DNA from: an uncultured Gammaproteobacteria bacterium
Lineage (GTDB): Bacteria > Patescibacteriota > Patescibacteriia > 2-12-FULL-57-11
Assembly: GCA_964648865.1 (NCBI GenBank)
Contig: CAZYLV010000002.1
Coordinates: 79,272 to 143,271, forward strand
Reading direction: 5' to 3'
Length of the DNA stretch: 64,000 nt
How positions within the stretch are numbered: the first letter of the stretch is position 1; every line of letters starts with the position of its first letter. The notes beneath the pieces are model-generated. The model saw only the letters and a list, made by a program, of their open reading frames with translations, made no database searches and was not told the origin of the DNA. This document shows positions 38,633-45,127 of the stretch, piece after piece. A program made the position numbers and the translations under genes.

Positions 38633-39211
38633 ATGAAGAATCGGCCCCCCGAGGAGTGGGGGAAGCTCCAGGTCTTCACCGGTACCGGCAAAGGCAAGAC
38701 CACGGCGGCGCTCGGCACGGCTCTGCGCGCGTTCGCCGTCGGCAAGCGCGTGGCCGTCGTCTGGTTCGACAAGGGCGGCACGCACTACAGCGAACGCGGG
38801 TTCCTGGGGTGGCTGCGGGAGCAGGAGACCCCGTGGGGCGGCAGCATCACCGTCGCCGCGTCCGGGCTCGACCGCATCGACCCGGAGACGGGGCGCTTCC
38901 GCTTCGGCGTCACGGATGAGGACAAGGCCGAGGCGGCCCGCGGCTGGGCCATCGCAGAGGGCCTCATCCGCGACGGACAGCACGATCTGGTCGTCCTGGA
39001 CGAGATCAACACCACCGTGGCCTTGGGCATGCTCCCCGAGGCACCGGTGCTCGCGGCCCTTGACGCACGCCCCGCGCACGTGGAGATAATCTGCACCGGA
39101 CGCGATGCGCCGCCGGGCATCCGCGAGCGGGCCGATCTCCTCACCGAGATGACGCTCGTCAAGCACTACTTCTACCACGGCGCCGCCGCCCGCGAGGGCT
39201 TGGATTACTAG
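38633..39211 (+). CDS. cobO: Cob(I)alamin / corrinoid adenosyltransferase (cobO/cobA/btuR family; family symbol only)
   Basis: P-loop FTGTGKGKTTAALG and VLDEI, ~190 aa, typical of ATP:cob(I)alamin adenosyltransferases. Confidence 0.8.
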   Translation: MKNRPPEEWGKLQVFTGTGKGKTTAALGTALRAFAVGKRVAVVWFDKGGTHYSERGFLGWLREQETPWGGSITVAASGLDRIDPETGRFRFGVTDEDKAEAARGWAIAEGLIRDGQHDLVVLDEINTTVALGMLPEAPVLAALDARPAHVEIICTGRDAPPGIRERADLLTEMTLVKHYFYHGAAAREGLDY

Positions 39212-39213
39212 TC

Positions 39214-39233
39214 GGGCGTGATGCATCACGCCC
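39214..39233. repeat. Copy 3 of the recurring palindrome (GGGCGTGATGCATCACGCCC, a perfect 20-mer), 11 nt upstream of the DUF4430 gene start
   Basis: The reverse complement is identical to the forward sequence. The flanking bases C/T...CCTAC resemble the arms of copy 1. Confidence 0.8.
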
Positions 39234-39244
39234 CTACAGCCGGT

Positions 39245-39685
39245 ATGAAACCCAAACTCGCCGCTTCCTTCATCGTCGTCGCGCTGGCCGCCTTCCTGCT
39301 CGGCTGGAGTTTCGGTCCTTCGCTGGCGCCGGCCCCGGCCGCTCCCGCGCCGGCCATGGACCAGAAGGAGCGCACCGTCTCCGTCATGCTCGACTTCGGC
39401 GACGGCACGGTGCGGACGTATGAGGGCGTGGCCTTCGCCGAGGGGGAGACGCTCTTCGACGTCATGCTGCGGCTCTCCGAGCGCGGCGACGGCTTCGTCT
39501 TCCGCCACCAACCGCCGGGCCAGTACGGCATCCTCATCGACCAGATCGGCAACATGGCCAGCGGTGCGGACGGCAAGTACTGGTTGTGGTACGAGAACAA
39601 CCGCATGGGGCAGGTGGCCTCGGACGCCTATGTCCTGCGGCCAGGCGACGTCATCGAGTGGAAGTTCATCAACCTCAAGATGTGA
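39245..39685 (+). CDS. DUF4430-domain secreted protein (transcobalamin-like, putative corrinoid-binding)
   Basis: A signal peptide and anchor, then the C-terminal KYWLWYENNRMGQVASDAYVLRPGDVIEWKF, which matches the DUF4430 signature (YW.Y.VNG....G...Y.L.DGD.I.W). Confidence 0.65.
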   Translation: MKPKLAASFIVVALAAFLLGWSFGPSLAPAPAAPAPAMDQKERTVSVMLDFGDGTVRTYEGVAFAEGETLFDVMLRLSERGDGFVFRHQPPGQYGILIDQIGNMASGADGKYWLWYENNRMGQVASDAYVLRPGDVIEWKFINLKM

Positions 39686-39687
39686 GC

Positions 39688-40230
39688 ATGCCCTACTTCA
39701 TGGCCGCCATCCTGGCGCTCCTGACCTTCGGCCTGCGCCTGGTCGAGCACCCCGAGAACGTCGCCCCCACGGCCGCGGCGATGCTCTTTGCGGGCGCCGT
39801 CCTGCCTCGGCGCTGGGGCTGGACCGCGCCGCTCGCGGGTTCCCTCGCCGCCGACGCCGTCATCGGGCTCTACGCCTGGCAGGTCATGGTCGCGGTCTAT
39901 GTCTCGTTTGCGGCCGTCTGGGCGCTCTCGGCGCTCGTCAACCGCGCCGCGCGTCCGGCCCGCACCGCGGTGCTGGCGATGACCGGTTCGTTGCTCTTCT
40001 TCCTGGTCACCAACTGGGCGACCTGGATGTGGACCGACCTCTACCCGGCCACATGGGCGGGGCTCGCCATGAGCTACGCCATGGGCGTGCCGTTCTTCCG
40101 CAACACCCTGCTCGGCGATCTCCTCTTCACCGGGGCGCTGTTTTCCGCGTATGCTGGATCGGTCTGGATCGTCCGCCACCGCACGGAACTCTTCGCCCAT
40201 CGGGTGATGCTGCGCGCGCGGGATCAATGA
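39688..40230 (+). CDS. Small six-TM membrane protein. Possibly an ECF-transporter S-component (candidate corrinoid substrate-capture subunit).
   Basis: ~180 aa with six hydrophobic helices, located directly after the DUF4430 gene. The assignment rests on context only. Confidence 0.4.
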   Translation: MPYFMAAILALLTFGLRLVEHPENVAPTAAAMLFAGAVLPRRWGWTAPLAGSLAADAVIGLYAWQVMVAVYVSFAAVWALSALVNRAARPARTAVLAMTGSLLFFLVTNWATWMWTDLYPATWAGLAMSYAMGVPFFRNTLLGDLLFTGALFSAYAGSVWIVRHRTELFAHRVMLRARDQ

Positions 40231-41357: not shown

Positions 41358-41798
41358 TCAGGCGGCGGTCGGCACGGGCGGCCGGGCTTTGCGCCAGGCA
41401 AGCACTGCCAACCCTGTCACGCCGATGATCAGGGTCTGCGACAACAGGCAGAGCACGCAATAGGCGCCGAGGACGAAGAACTCGATGCCGGTGAGGTACA
41501 AGGAAAAGCCCAGCGCGCCGAGCGCGAGCGTCAGGTAGAGCGCCGCGGCGTTGCGCGGATGGCGCAGCAGCCACAGCCCGGCGGCCAGCAAGGCCAGGTT
41601 CCCGAGGATGCCGATGAGCGCCACGGGGATGCCGAACAGCTCGGAGAACGTGCTCTTGTTGACGATGTCGCAGGAGAACGTGGCCGAGATGTTGCAGAAG
41701 GCCGACCCCGCCGGCGCGAAGTGCTGCCAGAGGGCATAGCCGGCGTTGGCGGTGCCGATGCCGGTGAGCGCGGTGTTGGTGGCGACGAGCTTCCTCAT
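41358..41798 (-). CDS. Vitamin K epoxide reductase (VKOR) family protein
   Basis: A loop cysteine pair (CNISATFSC) and a CVLC active-site CxxC within TM4, on a four- or five-TM scaffold. Confidence 0.75.
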   Translation of the reverse strand: MRKLVATNTALTGIGTANAGYALWQHFAPAGSAFCNISATFSCDIVNKSTFSELFGIPVALIGILGNLALLAAGLWLLRHPRNAAALYLTLALGALGFSLYLTGIEFFVLGAYCVLCLLSQTLIIGVTGLAVLAWRKARPPVPTAA

Positions 41799-41799
41799 G

Positions 41800-42177
41800 T
41801 CAGGACGGGAGGGCGCAGCCGGTCTTCTCGGCGAGGTCCTCGAGCGATTGTTCGCCCGTCAGCCGCGTGCCGTCGGCGAAGATCCAGGTCGGGTAGCCCT
41901 CGATCTTGGCTTCCTGGCAGGCAGGCGCGACGGCGCTCTGGTTGCCCGGGATGGCGCACTCGATGTAGGGAAGCTTCTTGGCCGAATTGCCGAAGAGCTT
42001 CTTCTGGTTGGCGCAATGCGGGCACCAGAACGCGCCGTAGAACTTGGCGCCTCTCTCGCCGAGGCAGGAGGCGAAGCCGTCCAGCGGGCCGGGCTGGCTG
42101 TTGGTGTACCAGATGCCGCCGCCGATGCCGCCGACGACGAGCACCACGATGAGCGCGATGAGTGCGGGGAACTTCAT
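41800..42177 (-). CDS. Membrane-anchored thioredoxin-fold disulfide oxidoreductase (DsbA-like partner of VKOR)
   Basis: An N-terminal TM helix and the WCPHC active site. It is immediately upstream of the VKOR gene, with the stop codon abutting the VKOR start. Confidence 0.75.
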   Translation of the reverse strand: MKFPALIALIVVLVVGGIGGGIWYTNSQPGPLDGFASCLGERGAKFYGAFWCPHCANQKKLFGNSAKKLPYIECAIPGNQSAVAPACQEAKIEGYPTWIFADGTRLTGEQSLEDLAEKTGCALPS

Positions 42178-42224: not shown

Positions 42225-42254
42225 TTGACATATGCAACTGAGTTGCATTAGCAT
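42225..42254 (+). promoter_or_regulatory. Promoter TTGACA-17/18nt-TAGCAT whose spacer is a perfect 17-bp palindrome, ATGCAACT-G-AGTTGCAT (42232-42248). This is a candidate Fur-family operator for autoregulation of the downstream regulator, and possibly of the divergent dsb operon.
   Basis: A perfect dyad sits between consensus -35 and -10-like hexamers. The ATG at 42261 is ~7 nt after the -10, so the transcript is leaderless. Confidence 0.65.
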
Positions 42255-42260
42255 TGCCCC

Positions 42261-42683
42261 ATGCCTGCCGCCCACCCCTCCCTCGACGGCCTGCGCGCCG
42301 CCGGGCACCGCATCACGCCGGTGCGCCAGGAGATCGTCGCCCTGCTGGCGCGCTCCCGGATGCCGTTGACCGCCGCCGAGATCGGCGTGCGGCTTTCCCG
42401 CGTCCGTCCCGGGACCAACAAGACCACCGTCTATCGCGAGCTGGAGTTCCTGGTGGCACAGGAGGTGGTTTCCGTCGTCCGCTTCGGCGAGCGCAGCGCC
42501 CGCTACGAGATCGCCGGCGGCGAGCACCATCATCATCTCGTCTGCACGCGCTGCGGCCGCGTCGTCGACATCATGCTGTCGGACGATCCGGACCGCCACG
42601 CCGCGCGCATCCGCCGCGAGACCGGCTTCACCGTGACGAGCCACGCCCTGGAGTTCTTCGGGTCCTGCAGGGATTGCTCCTGA
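42261..42683 (+). CDS. Fur-family metal-responsive transcriptional regulator (Fur/Zur/Nur/PerR-like)
   Basis: A winged-helix N-terminus, an HHHH run and CTRCGR...CRDC (two CxxC pairs), at ~140 aa. Confidence 0.8.
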   Translation: MPAAHPSLDGLRAAGHRITPVRQEIVALLARSRMPLTAAEIGVRLSRVRPGTNKTTVYRELEFLVAQEVVSVVRFGERSARYEIAGGEHHHHLVCTRCGRVVDIMLSDDPDRHAARIRRETGFTVTSHALEFFGSCRDCS

Positions 42684-42686
42684 GAT

Positions 42687-43676
42687 ATGCGCATCGCTTT
42701 CGTCGGCAAGGGGGGCGCGGGGAAGACGACCAGCGCCGCGCTGTTCGCGGCCTATGCCAGGACGCGCGGCGTCCCGGTGCTGGCCGTGGACGCGGACATC
42801 AACATGCATCTTGGGCCGCTGCTCGGCCTGCCGGAGGCGCCTGCCGCGTCGCACATCTCGCATCCGGAAGCGGCCGCGTCACTCAAGACGCATCTCAAGG
42901 GCGACAACGAGCGCATCGCCAGCCTCGGCGCCTTCCGCAAGACCACGCCGCCCACGCGCGATTCGCGGTTCGTGGTCCTCGGCGACGAGGCCGATCCGCT
43001 GCTCGCGCGCTTCGCCGCAGGCGCGCCCGGGTTCCGCCTGCTCACCGTAGGGACGTATGAGGAGGAACGGATCGGCGCCAGCTGCTACCACAACAACCTC
43101 TCGGTGCTCGAGAACCTGCTGACGCATCTCGTGGACGCGCCCGGCGTGCTGGTCTGCGACATGGTCGCCGGCACGGACGCCTTCGCCAGCACGCTGCATG
43201 CGCAGTTCGACGTGCTCGCGCTCGTCGTGGAGCCGACGCGCCGCGGACTCGAGGTCTACGGCCAATACGCAGCGCTGGCCGCGGCCGCCGGCGTCGCGGA
43301 CCGGCTGGCCGTCATCGGCAACAAGGTCCGTGGTGGGGAGGACGAGGCCTTCCTGCGCGCGGCCATCCCGGCCGCGCGGTTCCTCGGTGTCATGGGCGAT
43401 GCCGCGGAGTTGCGGCGCCTGGACCGCGAGGGCGGCGCCGTCGACCTGGCCCGCATGGAGCCGGAGCACGTCGGCTGGTTGCCGGCGCTCTTCGCGCGGC
43501 TGGCCGCCCGCCCCGCCGACCCGGACGAGCGCTACCGCCAGCTGCTTGCCCTGCACCGCACCTATGTGGCGCAGGCCTCCATCATCGAGCGCTTCGGCGA
43601 CCTGACGACGCAGATCGACCCGGGCTTCGACTACGCGGGCCATCTCTCCCGGCTATGGCCGATCCGCGCCACCTGA
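42687..43676 (+). CDS. CooC/ParA/MinD-family P-loop ATPase (SIMIBI class; possible metallochaperone or metal-centre maturation ATPase)
   Basis: A deviant Walker A motif (IAFVGKGGAGKTT) and a DADIN Walker B-like motif. Confidence 0.65.
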   Translation: MRIAFVGKGGAGKTTSAALFAAYARTRGVPVLAVDADINMHLGPLLGLPEAPAASHISHPEAAASLKTHLKGDNERIASLGAFRKTTPPTRDSRFVVLGDEADPLLARFAAGAPGFRLLTVGTYEEERIGASCYHNNLSVLENLLTHLVDAPGVLVCDMVAGTDAFASTLHAQFDVLALVVEPTRRGLEVYGQYAALAAAAGVADRLAVIGNKVRGGEDEAFLRAAIPAARFLGVMGDAAELRRLDREGGAVDLARMEPEHVGWLPALFARLAARPADPDERYRQLLALHRTYVAQASIIERFGDLTTQIDPGFDYAGHLSRLWPIRAT

Positions 43677-45127
43677 ACGTCTTTTCCGGGCCCACGGCTC
43701 TGGCCGATTCCCTCGATCCGGACAAGCAGCCCTATTTCCCCCTGATCGAGCTGCCGCCGGACCTCAACCCCCTGGCCGGGGATCGGGTGCGCATCTTCGC
43801 CAAGGCCATGCACCAGCACCCGCTCGGCAACGTCAAGGCGCTGCCGGCCTTGCGCATGCTCCGCGAGGCCGACGCCGCGCGTCCCCTGGCCGGGGAGTCG
43901 CTCATCGAGAACTCCTCGGGCAACACCGTGGCCTCGCTGGCCGTGTTGGGCCGCCTGTTCGGCGTCGCGCGCACGCGGGCCGTCGTCTCCCACGAGGTGA
44001 CGCCGGGCAAGCTGCAGCTGTTGCGGCTGTTCGGCGTCGAGGTCCAGGTCAACGAGGAGCCAATCTGTCCGGATCCGCACGACGCGACGAGCGGCATCCA
44101 CCTGGCAGCGCAGAAGGGCGCGGAGCCGGGCTGGCGCAACCCTGGCCAGTACGACAACGCCGCCAACCCCGCGGCGCATGAGGCCTGGACCGGCCCACAG
44201 ATCTGGGAGCAGACCGCCGGAGCGGTCACGGTCTTCTGTTGCGGCTTGGGGACCACCGGCACGGCGGTCGGCGCGGGCGGCTACCTCAAGCGGCGCGTGC
44301 CGCAGCTCGCGCGCATCGGCGTGGTGCGCGCGCCCAACAACCCGGTACCCGGCGTCCGCACGGAGAACCTGCTGCGGGAGATCGCCTTCGATTGGCGTGG
44401 TGCCGTGGATCGGCTCGTCGAGGTCGGCACCGTGGACGCGTACCGCGAGAGCCTGGCCCTCATCCGGCGCGGCATCGTCTGCGGCCCGAGCGCGGGCTTC
44501 GCCTACGCCGGCCTGCTGCGGTTCCTCGAGGAAGCGCGGGAGGCCGGCGGCCTGGACGCCCTGCGCAACGCGGCAGGCGAGGTCGTCGCCGTGTTCGTAT
44601 GTCCGGACTCGCCGCTGCCGTACCTCGACGAGTACTTTTCGTGCCTCGATGCCGCGCACTTCCCGGAGATCGTCGGGGAAGAGCTGCTGCTGCATCGCGC
44701 GGCGCGACCGAGGCGCGCCCCCGCGATGGCAACCGCGCTCGACGCTGCGGCCGCCTACGGGCGCCTGTACGACATGCCGGCGCCTGCCCTCGCGCGGGCC
44801 GTCGCCGCGGGGACGGCCGCCATGCGTCCTGGTGTGGCGCTCCTCGACCTGCGATCGGCTGAGGACTTCGCGCATTTCCACCTCATCGGCGCCGAGCGCC
44901 TGGAGTATCGGGACGCCTTACGGGATGTCGACAACATCGCCGCGGTCCTGGCAGGACGCACGGCGATCGTCATCTGCGCGCACGGGGCGCGGTCGCAGGT
45001 CCTGGCCGGGTTGCTGCGGCAACATGGCGTCGATGCCTGGAGCGTGGCGGGCGGCACCACGGAATGGTCCCGCCGCCACTTGCCGCGCTGGCGCGCCGAC
45101 GCTTGCCGGGTCCGGGACCGCACCTAA
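43655..45127 (+). CDS. PLP-dependent cysteine-synthase/CBS-family (fold type II) enzyme fused to a C-terminal rhodanese domain
   Basis: A PLP-Lys region (HPLGNVKALPAL), SGNT, the glycine loop GLGTTGT, and a C-terminal rhodanese with an active-site CAHGARS (CxxGxR). Confidence 0.7.
   Translation: MADPRHLNVFSGPTALADSLDPDKQPYFPLIELPPDLNPLAGDRVRIFAKAMHQHPLGNVKALPALRMLREADAARPLAGESLIENSSGNTVASLAVLGRLFGVARTRAVVSHEVTPGKLQLLRLFGVEVQVNEEPICPDPHDATSGIHLAAQKGAEPGWRNPGQYDNAANPAAHEAWTGPQIWEQTAGAVTVFCCGLGTTGTAVGAGGYLKRRVPQLARIGVVRAPNNPVPGVRTENLLREIAFDWRGAVDRLVEVGTVDAYRESLALIRRGIVCGPSAGFAYAGLLRFLEEAREAGGLDALRNAAGEVVAVFVCPDSPLPYLDEYFSCLDAAHFPEIVGEELLLHRAARPRRAPAMATALDAAAAYGRLYDMPAPALARAVAAGTAAMRPGVALLDLRSAEDFAHFHLIGAERLEYRDALRDVDNIAAVLAGRTAIVICAHGARSQVLAGLLRQHGVDAWSVAGGTTEWSRRHLPRWRADACRVRDRT

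Follow-up and report, generated by a model that had tools for sequence, protein, structure and literature searches.

Why would a bacterium of an ultra-small lineage with minimal biosynthetic capacity keep an operon that joins a metal-type regulator, a nucleotide-binding ATPase and a pyridoxal phosphate (PLP) enzyme fused to a rhodanese domain? The question is raised by a 64,000-nt stretch of contig CAZYLV010000002.1 (assembly GCA_964648865.1, positions 79,272 to 143,271 of the forward strand; hereafter the window, whose own numbering is used throughout), which is deposited as an uncultured gammaproteobacterium and is assigned to the Patescibacteriota in its GTDB lineage. At 42225-45127 a gene for a Fur-family regulator, with a palindrome in its promoter, is followed by genes for a CooC-like ATPase and for the PLP-rhodanese fusion. 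We propose that this is a zinc-starvation operon of the candidate phyla radiation (CPR), in which a zinc-sensing repressor would control its own gene, a chaperone-like ATPase and a beta-replacement enzyme of the zincophore-synthase type, and we put the probability of this full chain at roughly 45%.

The argument starts at the promoter. On the plus strand, a -35 hexamer TTGACA (42225-42230) and a -10 hexamer TAGCAT (42249-42254) enclose a spacer of 18 nt (42231-42248), and a 17-bp palindrome, ATGCAACTgAGTTGCAT, occupies the spacer at 42232-42248, so that the first T of the -10 directly follows the last T of the palindrome; read directly, its arms are 8-1-8, ATGCAACT-G-AGTTGCAT. The promoter is also found by a consensus scan, in which it scores 10 out of 12 and which returned 4 promoter-like sites in the surrounding 4 kb as against 0.3 from shuffled sequence. 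A search for further copies found the 17-mer to be unique in the window (0.02 expected by chance with up to three mismatches), and a degenerate search of the same 64 kb gave no second convincing 6-5-6 box.

The palindrome is kept in relatives, as a 6-5-6 or 7-3-7 box with the consensus ATGCAA-N5-TTGCAT. In most of the co-directional loci found through the PLP-rhodanese protein it lies between TTGAC(A) and the -10 of the regulator gene, with the sequence ATGCAACACTGTTGCAT in loci L019 and L045, ATGCAACTTAGTTGCAT in L038, and ATGCAACATAGTTGCAT in L013 and L043. Where regulator and ATPase genes are divergent (L008, L040, L041), one or two boxes lie between them, and where no regulator gene adjoins (L027, L031), the box still stands directly before the ATPase gene. 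With at most two mismatches to the consensus, a box is present upstream of the ATPase or the regulator in 36 of 44 CPR genome loci, and 50 of the 82 boxes in these 44 loci are concentrated in the short upstream regions, which make up about 5% of the sequence. The box is unchanged across relatives' loci of 25-54% G+C and the window, computed at about 69%. A metagenome search with the pattern TTGACNNATGCAACNNNGTTGCAT, which covers one promoter architecture and specifies 19 bases, matched at least 120 stretches, where a rough estimate allows a handful by chance; TTGAC is part of the pattern and hence present at these sites by construction, which makes it no measure of conservation there. The same promoter position thus recurs in dozens of orthologous loci and at the metagenome sites, and we consider it very probable that the box is the operator of the regulator and, because it lies within the regulator's own promoter, that the regulator is autoregulated.

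What follows the box is shared as well. Across 79 orthologous promoters the -10 consensus behind it is T-A/T-A/T-A-A/C-T, and in 61 of them the start codon of the regulator comes 11-14 nt past the box, that is, 6-9 nt past the -10; the distance of 12 in the window, where the ATG follows the -10 by 6 nt, is the commonest value. Because of this spacing, and because a Shine-Dalgarno-like tetramer is present in just 3 of the 79, the regulator transcript is probably leaderless, a feature that by these sequence criteria appears to be conserved. The initial annotation, made from the letters of the window, had described the palindrome in the TTGACA-TAGCAT spacer and the open reading frames (ORFs) behind it and had read them as an operator, an autoregulated gene and a leaderless transcript; the comparison with relatives supports all of this.

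Some loci arrange these elements differently. The regulator starts 240-390 nt past the box, not 11-14 nt, in L095, L108, L112, L143 and L180; in L095 the gap is filled by a 71-aa ORF without a family match, and such gaps may represent a long leader or contain a small gene of the regulon. In L087, L090, L094, L103 and L122 a weaker second box (e.g. ...GTTGCATTATCATTACGCCACTTAGTTGCAA...) lies between the -10 and the start codon which, together with the divergent loci L008, L040 and L041, suggests tandem operators in some lineages.

The three genes behind the promoter are tightly packed on the plus strand. The regulator (42261-42683, 140 aa) belongs to the Fur family, matching PF01475 (FUR) with E 6.7e-25 and 88 bits against a cut-off of 23.1. 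According to the ORF map, the ATPase gene (42687-43676, 329 aa, PF01656 CbiA) begins 3 nt past the regulator stop codon and shares a 22-nt overlap with the gene for the fusion enzyme (43655-45127, 490 aa; PF00291, E 1.7e-38; PF00581, E 3.3e-9). This trio is a conserved module. Scanning one genome per species gave 80 loci, and the set with the full two-domain enzyme comprises 49 (48 genome loci and the window), almost all of them in metagenome-assembled genomes (MAGs) that are unclassified or labelled as CPR. In 47 of these 49 loci the ATPase gene immediately precedes that for the PLP-rhodanese enzyme, and a Fur-family gene adjoins in 35, either co-directional as in the window or divergent. Homologs of the fused enzyme are many, and those few with a source name are labelled mostly as Patescibacteria, Saccharibacteria and Paceibacterota, with single Acidobacteria and Verrucomicrobiae labels. 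The source of the window looks like a divergent, unusually GC-rich lineage within or near the CPR, since its G+C exceeds that of the 36 orthologous loci for which it was computed and the best homologs of regulator, ATPase and enzyme are merely 47-57% identical. Some of the closest regulator homologs are labelled Deltaproteobacteria or Bdellovibrionota.

Which metal does the regulator sense? The initial annotation had left the metal unnamed and had expected a small regulon; in relatives the regulon is not small, and its content names zinc as the probable metal. When the genes behind the box were clustered into families and representatives checked with Pfam, the regulator was the first gene of 58-79 operons among the matches listed, a limit that applies to all counts of operons, families and clusters behind the box given here. 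Next came transporters: the ZIP transporter (PF02535) in 34 operons, ZnuA (PF01297) in 32, ZnuC in 26 and ZnuB in 21. The CooC-like ATPase follows the box in 13 operons, the PLP-rhodanese enzyme in at least 7, and a YibE/F membrane protein in 5. Clustering at 80% identity leaves 30 ZIP, 27 ZnuA and 42 regulator clusters, and the regulators that head transporter operons form one family with those beside the ATPase, with no separate paralog group. In L203 the ATPase, the PLP-rhodanese enzyme, ZIP and YibE/F share one operon, and in L010, from the genome set, a regulator-ZnuA-ABC ATPase operon is divergent from the ATPase operon. The third ligand is a histidine in 25 of 27 box-regulated ZnuA proteins, which puts them in the three-His class typical of zinc; the manganese-type protein PsaA has Glu205 at this position. 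Because an identical operator heads ZIP and three-His ZnuA operons in relatives, the regulator is probably a Zur-type zinc sensor, the trait that defines Zur by function, zinc-uptake genes under its operator, being seen here by comparative genomics only.

A YibE/F-family protein (PF07907, e.g. L001:3323-4543) is paired with the regulator in 11 genome loci and also joins the ATPase-enzyme-ZIP operon, which makes it a candidate transporter of the regulon.

The logic of such a system is that of a Zur regulon. Zur of Bacillus subtilis, Mycobacterium and Streptomyces controls znuABC and a P-loop metallochaperone of the COG0523 family, and in Amycolatopsis japonicum Zur controls the zincophore ethylenediamine-disuccinate (EDDS). 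Here too we find a Fur-family repressor with a Cys4 site, an operator overlapping the promoter, ZnuABC, a ZIP importer, a SIMIBI-class NTPase and a candidate chelator enzyme. What is new is the type of operator and the presence of two components that no Zur regulon is known to contain, an NTPase that is CooC-like where others are of COG0523, and a homolog of aspergillomarasmine A (AMA) synthase.

The ATPase is CooC-like by both sequence and fold. CooC1 (3KJE) is its best match in the Protein Data Bank by sequence (phmmer E 3.5e-10) and by fold (Foldseek E 2.7e-11, from a model with pLDDT 89.5), followed by MinD, Soj and ATPase-type HypB, with ParA structures also among the fold matches. CooC1 of Carboxydothermus hydrogenoformans, the nickel-insertion ATPase for CO dehydrogenase, shares with it the MinD-type SIMIBI fold, the deviant Walker A motif (here GKGGAGKT) and the switch motifs (DADxN and DMVAGTDAF, the latter DMVAGxDAF in the family), and both carry a metal-site motif at the equal position of the chain: the nickel-binding C112-x-C114 of CooC1 aligns with C133-Y134-H135 (codons 43083-43091). 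Of 47 orthologs, 96% have C133 and H135, which are invariant in a second ATPase alignment (A2), and H147, H171 and H290 are kept in at least 94% of the 47. The two proteins differ in three respects: C-x-C has become C-x-H, about 80 extra helical residues form a family-specific C-terminal extension (residues ~250-329, motif LH..YVAQ...ERFGDLT.QID), and the partner is a PLP enzyme. The initial annotation had taken the protein for a SIMIBI ATPase of the kind that inserts nickel or iron; the class stands, but a function as a Ni/Fe insertase is not supported, given the C-x-H motif and the partners. No CO dehydrogenase gene was found among the conserved neighbours of the ATPase or the families behind the box, and neither of its partners, the PLP-rhodanese enzyme and a family introduced below, is a CO dehydrogenase, hydrogenase or urease. 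We see an even chance that the ATPase is a metallochaperone, in which case it would resemble the COG0523 zinc chaperones, which are G3E GTPases with a CxCC motif, in role and not in family, being of the MinD/CooC type by sequence and fold.

Paralogs of the ATPase stand behind the same box at L133, L186 and L200, where they are partnered with PF20704 ('NucS shadow ORF') proteins, a second and uncharacterised partner family; paralogs with other partners fit a chaperone that serves several clients.

The third protein consists of a CysK-fold domain (residues ~37-330) and a rhodanese domain (~391-473). The PLP lysine K61, the Asn substrate loop S87-S88-G89-N90-T91 and the Gly/Thr phosphate loop G197-x-G199-T200-T201-G202-T203 are at least 90% conserved, most of these residues being invariant. 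The rhodanese domain scores 37.5 on PF00581 against a cut-off of 22.2, and C441 (codon 44975-44977), which opens its catalytic loop C-A-H-G-A-R-S, is invariant in 44 of 44 orthologs. The initial annotation had asked whether the PLP domain groups with SbnA or with CysM; it is an equivalog of neither, as the enzyme scores far below the NCBIfam equivalog cut-offs (cysM 116.6 against 394.2 bits, cysK 81.4 against 351, SbnA 83.7 against 350) and has an extra rhodanese domain, although it shares with CysM, CysK and SbnA the fold, the PLP-binding residues and probably the aminoacrylate mechanism.

Among solved structures, both domains are matched by just two, 8H4Q and 8H4H (E 6e-86, residues 4-480 against 3-484), which the Foldseek labels give as AMA synthetase with O-phosphoserine and in the apo form, respectively; by fold, the match to AMA synthase has a Foldseek E of 2.7e-46 at 35% identity. 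Both enzymes have a CysK-fold PLP domain with a C-terminal rhodanese domain, the PLP lysine, the Asn loop and the rhodanese cysteine, with which C441 aligns, whereas the enzyme here is bacterial, stands under a metal regulator and is paired with an ATPase. AMA synthase uses O-phosphoserine with Asp, and then with toxin A, in C-N bond formation (bioRxiv 10.1101/2025.10.30.685158), and PMC8829947 presents AMA as a natural Zn2+ metallophore. Fungal Fda4 of fusadapamide biosynthesis, a PLP enzyme with a rhodanese-like domain that joins O-phosphoserine to Ala (PMC12751119), has the same two-domain architecture, a likeness taken from its description. The full-length homology to AMA synthase favours the lean of the initial annotation towards a metallophore; that the enzyme makes a chelator or zincophore is a tentative proposal, to which we give less than even odds. 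A zinc-repressed homolog of a zincophore synthase, accompanied in some lineages by decarboxylase and methyltransferase genes, fits such a role. An ornithine/diaminopimelate (Orn/DAP)-type decarboxylase gene lies between ATPase and enzyme genes in 3 operons, and S-adenosylmethionine (SAM) methyltransferase genes adjoin in 5 genome loci; SbnH and AesC of metallophore pathways are Orn/DAP-type decarboxylases.

How might the parts work together? From the sequence features, the conserved trio and operator, the regulon content in relatives and the homologies, we propose an effector, a mode of repression, a role for the ATPase, and a chemistry and product for the enzyme. A metal-bound repressor dimer on ATGCAACTgAGTTGCAT would fill the spacer between -35 and -10 and block RNA polymerase, which would turn off the leaderless regulator transcript along with the two downstream genes coupled to it in translation. 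At low zinc, the repressor would depart, and all three genes would be expressed from a leaderless tricistronic mRNA. The ATPase would act as a nucleotide-driven metallochaperone of the CooC type, taking the part that COG0523 chaperones have in other Zur regulons, its dimer-interface site having changed from Cys4 (two C-x-C, binding nickel in CooC) to Cys2His2 (two C-x-H), which would suit zinc. The enzyme would most likely activate O-phosphoserine (or O-acetylserine) to aminoacrylate, which would then react with the amine of an amino acid, or with a sulfur nucleophile relayed via the rhodanese cysteine, to give a small zinc-chelating amino-acid derivative, a zincophore, while the ATPase would serve either the enzyme or the surrounding zinc traffic. 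A more specific version, which we regard as rather unlikely in all its detail, would combine a Zur with a Nur-like 6-5-6 operator and leaderless transcripts, a CooC-derived C-x-H zinc chaperone, and a one-step, phosphoserine-derived aminopolycarboxylate or thiol zincophore, the enzyme possibly being loaded or gated by the ATPase through a Cys3 site.

Several observations weigh against this chain, some of them bearing on the enzyme and others on the metal. C138 (codon 44066-44068, loop EPICPDP) is present in 44 of 44 fused enzymes of the CPR and in these only, being Q in AMA synthase and N, A or other residues in proteobacterial PLP-only relatives, and C484 (codon 45104-45106, C-terminal tail PRWRxxxC), found in 43 of 44 CPR orthologs and invariant in a separate alignment of the enzyme (A1), lies beyond the end of the AMA synthase alignment. 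A gene of the SaoD/DsrE family, resembling sulfur-relay genes (NCBIfam NF040913, 192 bits against a cut-off of 152), stands behind the box in six loci (L016, L088, L093, L096, L117 and L194), and in L016 (4674-5051) it is located between regulator and ATPase. The operon encodes no chelator exporter or importer, the obligatory ATPase partner of a chelator synthase has no explanation, and the PLP domain has its nearest bacterial relatives in arsenic-resistance clusters and not in zinc clusters. The invariant cysteines and the DsrE-like genes point to sulfur chemistry or a metal site, not to simple C-N bond formation, and they keep a persulfide relay and a Cys3 metal site in play.

The persulfide relay is the main rival, a serious one that we nevertheless consider unlikely. 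It retains the Zur-type regulation and has the enzyme do sulfur chemistry: C441 would take sulfane sulfur from thiosulfate or a DsrE-like carrier and pass it via C484 and C138 to the PLP-bound aminoacrylate, yielding cysteine, its persulfide or some other thiol, with which the cell could buffer or ligate zinc or cover Fe-S or thiolation demands during metal stress, with the ATPase aiding the relay or carrying a metal or cluster. Besides the three invariant cysteines, among them C138 with its restriction to the rhodanese-fused CPR form, and the position of the SaoD/DsrE genes, this would account for the hit of the rhodanese region on GlpE in NCBIfam (E 8e-6), a sulfurtransferase whose active-site loop is similar to C-x-x-G-x-R-S, and for the best NCBIfam similarity of the PLP domain, which is to CysM/CysK; CysM-type enzymes take thiosulfate or thiocarboxylate donors. 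However, that similarity falls far short of the cut-off (117 against 394 bits), DsrE-like genes occur in a minority of the operons, and the closest characterised two-domain homolog forms C-N bonds despite having the rhodanese cysteine. There is also no evident reason why cysteine synthesis should be repressed by zinc.

The other objections concern the metal. The regulatory-site residues of the regulator fit no characterised Zur, and in the 36-ortholog alignment the usual His/Asp ligand of the N-terminal domain is not evident. The 64-kb window holds no ZIP, ZnuA or YibE/F gene and, as noted, a single box, so that membership in the regulon is inferred from relatives, and the link of the regulator to zinc is likewise drawn from comparison. 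Transport by ZIP and ZnuA families extends to Mn, Fe and Co, and the one ZnuA tested, from L010, scores slightly higher on the NCBIfam model of Deinococcus MntC than on AztC. Could the regulator then sense manganese like Mur, iron like Fur or nickel like Nur, with the ATPase handling that metal? We think this improbable, although the operator itself lends it some colour. The box had been described as matching neither the Fur nor the Zur box, and it does differ from the Fur, PerR and Zur boxes, being 6-5-6 or 7-3-7 and not of the n-1-n type (7-1-7 in Zur); what had been missed is its resemblance to the Nur box. In Streptomyces coelicolor this box, bound by a nickel-responsive Fur homolog, reads tTGCaa-N5-ttGCAA (PMC2691836), the same 17-bp 6-5-6 palindrome with the same TGCAA/TTGCA core as the operator here. 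The ATPase gives a further argument, as both CooC and ATPase-type HypB are nickel chaperones. For manganese, the Mur boxes of alpha-proteobacteria likewise contain TGCAA...TTGCA.

The metal site of the regulator nevertheless excludes it from Nur. We aligned 36 orthologs with reference sequences, the residue numbering of which agrees with the literature. The Cys4 structural site (CxxC...CxxC) is kept in all 36, whereas a histidine at the columns of the Nur nickel site (His70, His72, His126) occurs in none, the residues in the window being V, R and A. These three histidines define Nur and are found only in its orthologs (PMC2691836). Also absent are the N-terminal-domain histidines of PerR (His37, the ligand that peroxide oxidises and that acts with His91, His93, Asp85 and Asp104) and of the M-site of Fur and Nur (His33); the His37 column holds Pro in 23 orthologs, Leu in 10, Ile in 2 and Phe in 1, and the Asp104 column is variable. 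Candidate ligands that are kept are E81, H88, H89 and H90 in E. coli Fur numbering and apparently, from the consensus line, H125. With the nickel-site and His37 ligands gone, the regulator belongs to neither the Nur nor the PerR subfamily, and it stays below every NCBIfam equivalog cut-off (Fur 80 of 220 bits, PerR 65 of 180, Zur PRK11639 40.5 of 167), so on its own the regulator sequence would not name a metal. The regulon speaks against manganese, iron and nickel as well: nearly all of the regulated ZnuA proteins are three-His and not of the His2-Glu-Asp manganese type, no NRAMP, Nik or siderophore-receptor genes are among the 16 largest families behind the box, sodF and nik genes, which mark the Nur regulon, are absent, and the nickel-binding C-x-C of CooC is not kept in the ATPase. 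Taken with the transporter genes behind the box in relatives, this leaves Zur-type sensing as the preferred reading; a Fur-family protein without the nickel site of Nur would then be able to read a Nur-type box.

The Cys3 site suggests a further possibility, to which we give little weight: that the enzyme is a zinc-requiring (Cys3) or zinc-independent replacement in primary metabolism, with the ATPase as its insertase and no chelator involved, co-induction of the insertase keeping the enzyme working under zinc scarcity. This would account for the near-exceptionless coupling of ATPase and enzyme, the three invariant cysteines could make up such a metal site, and ZagA-FolE and Zng1-MetAP1 are chaperone-client precedents from COG0523. 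A protein of 829 aa (P0063) even fuses ATPase and enzyme seamlessly, but it is weak evidence, because only one contig, of 4.3 kb, carries it and a frameshift may have created it artificially. We know of no zinc-dependent counterpart that the PLP-rhodanese enzyme would replace, and the accessory decarboxylase and methyltransferase genes look like small-molecule tailoring.

Finally, a PerR-type peroxide sensor or a true ParA partition ATPase in a cluster unrelated to metal supply, which the initial annotation had named as outcomes that would overturn a metal-related role, is very remote in spite of PerR models that score nearly level with Fur models and of Soj, MinD and ParA among the fold matches, given that every one of the 36 orthologs lacks the His37 ligand and metal import genes make up the regulon, and that the ATPase scores 20.8 on NCBIfam ParA against a cut-off of 180, has CooC1 as its best match with CooC-type motifs and a Cys/His motif at the CooC metal site, is coupled to the PLP enzyme in 47 of 49 loci, and has no ParB-like gene adjoining it in the window and no ParB-like family among its conserved neighbours or the families behind the box.

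If the zinc-starvation reading is right, a CPR metal regulator would for the first time have its regulon reconstructed and its operator motif defined, and CooC-derived ATPases may have given rise to zinc metallochaperones a second time, independently of COG0523. It would also identify bacterial relatives of AMA synthase, whose product is pursued as an inhibitor of NDM-type metallo-beta-lactamases; should the enzyme indeed make a zincophore, this would be the first metallophore pathway of the CPR and a bacterial source of AMA-like metallo-beta-lactamase inhibitors. For Patescibacteria, ultra-small and poor in biosynthesis as they are, the finding would allow a direct test of zinc competition by episymbiotic, genome-reduced bacteria. 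The system lends itself to experiment, as all three proteins are small, soluble and expressible and the operator is a defined 17-mer. We found no published description of it, nor anything relevant on cysteine synthase with rhodanese in Patescibacteria or on fused PLP-rhodanese enzymes, in a literature coverage that was incomplete.

The closest relatives of the PLP domain outside the CPR are found in arsenic-type clusters. In L047-L079, from MAGs of Rhodobacteraceae, Hyphomicrobiales and Gammaproteobacteria, they are 50-56% identical and lack the rhodanese domain. In their clusters (e.g. L053:1848-7382), genes for ArsA, ArsD, a class I/II aminotransferase and a MIP aquaglyceroporin are on one strand, and those for the PLP enzyme and an ArsR-type regulator on the other; this arrangement is kept in 16-18 of 31 loci, and an ArsB/Acr3 pump was not seen nearby. 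To our knowledge, no role has been described for a CysK-like enzyme with an aminotransferase in an ars cluster. We rejected an arsenic or metalloid reading of the operon because the PLP enzymes of these clusters come without the rhodanese domain, C138, the CooC-like ATPase and the box. Locus L088 shows another combination, in which the SaoD/DsrE gene is followed by a Clp-like ATPase-sized ORF and then by a gene for an 812-aa protein with a very His-rich N-terminus.

Around the operon in the window, a convergent response regulator gene and then tRNA-Pro lie downstream. Upstream, on the minus strand at 41358-42177 and divergent from the regulator, are a thioredoxin-like gene with a signal anchor and a VKOR-family gene; because only about 17 nt separate the box from the promoter-like site of this pair (42215-42187), the two genes may be co-regulated through the operator. 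Farther upstream, an ORF at 38633-39211 resembles, as judged by eye, a cob(I)alamin adenosyltransferase, and it is followed by genes for a DUF4430 protein (39218-39685) and a DUF6580 membrane protein (39586-40230); the block at 38633-40230 could be a unit for cobalamin uptake and adenosylation, apparently separate from the operon.

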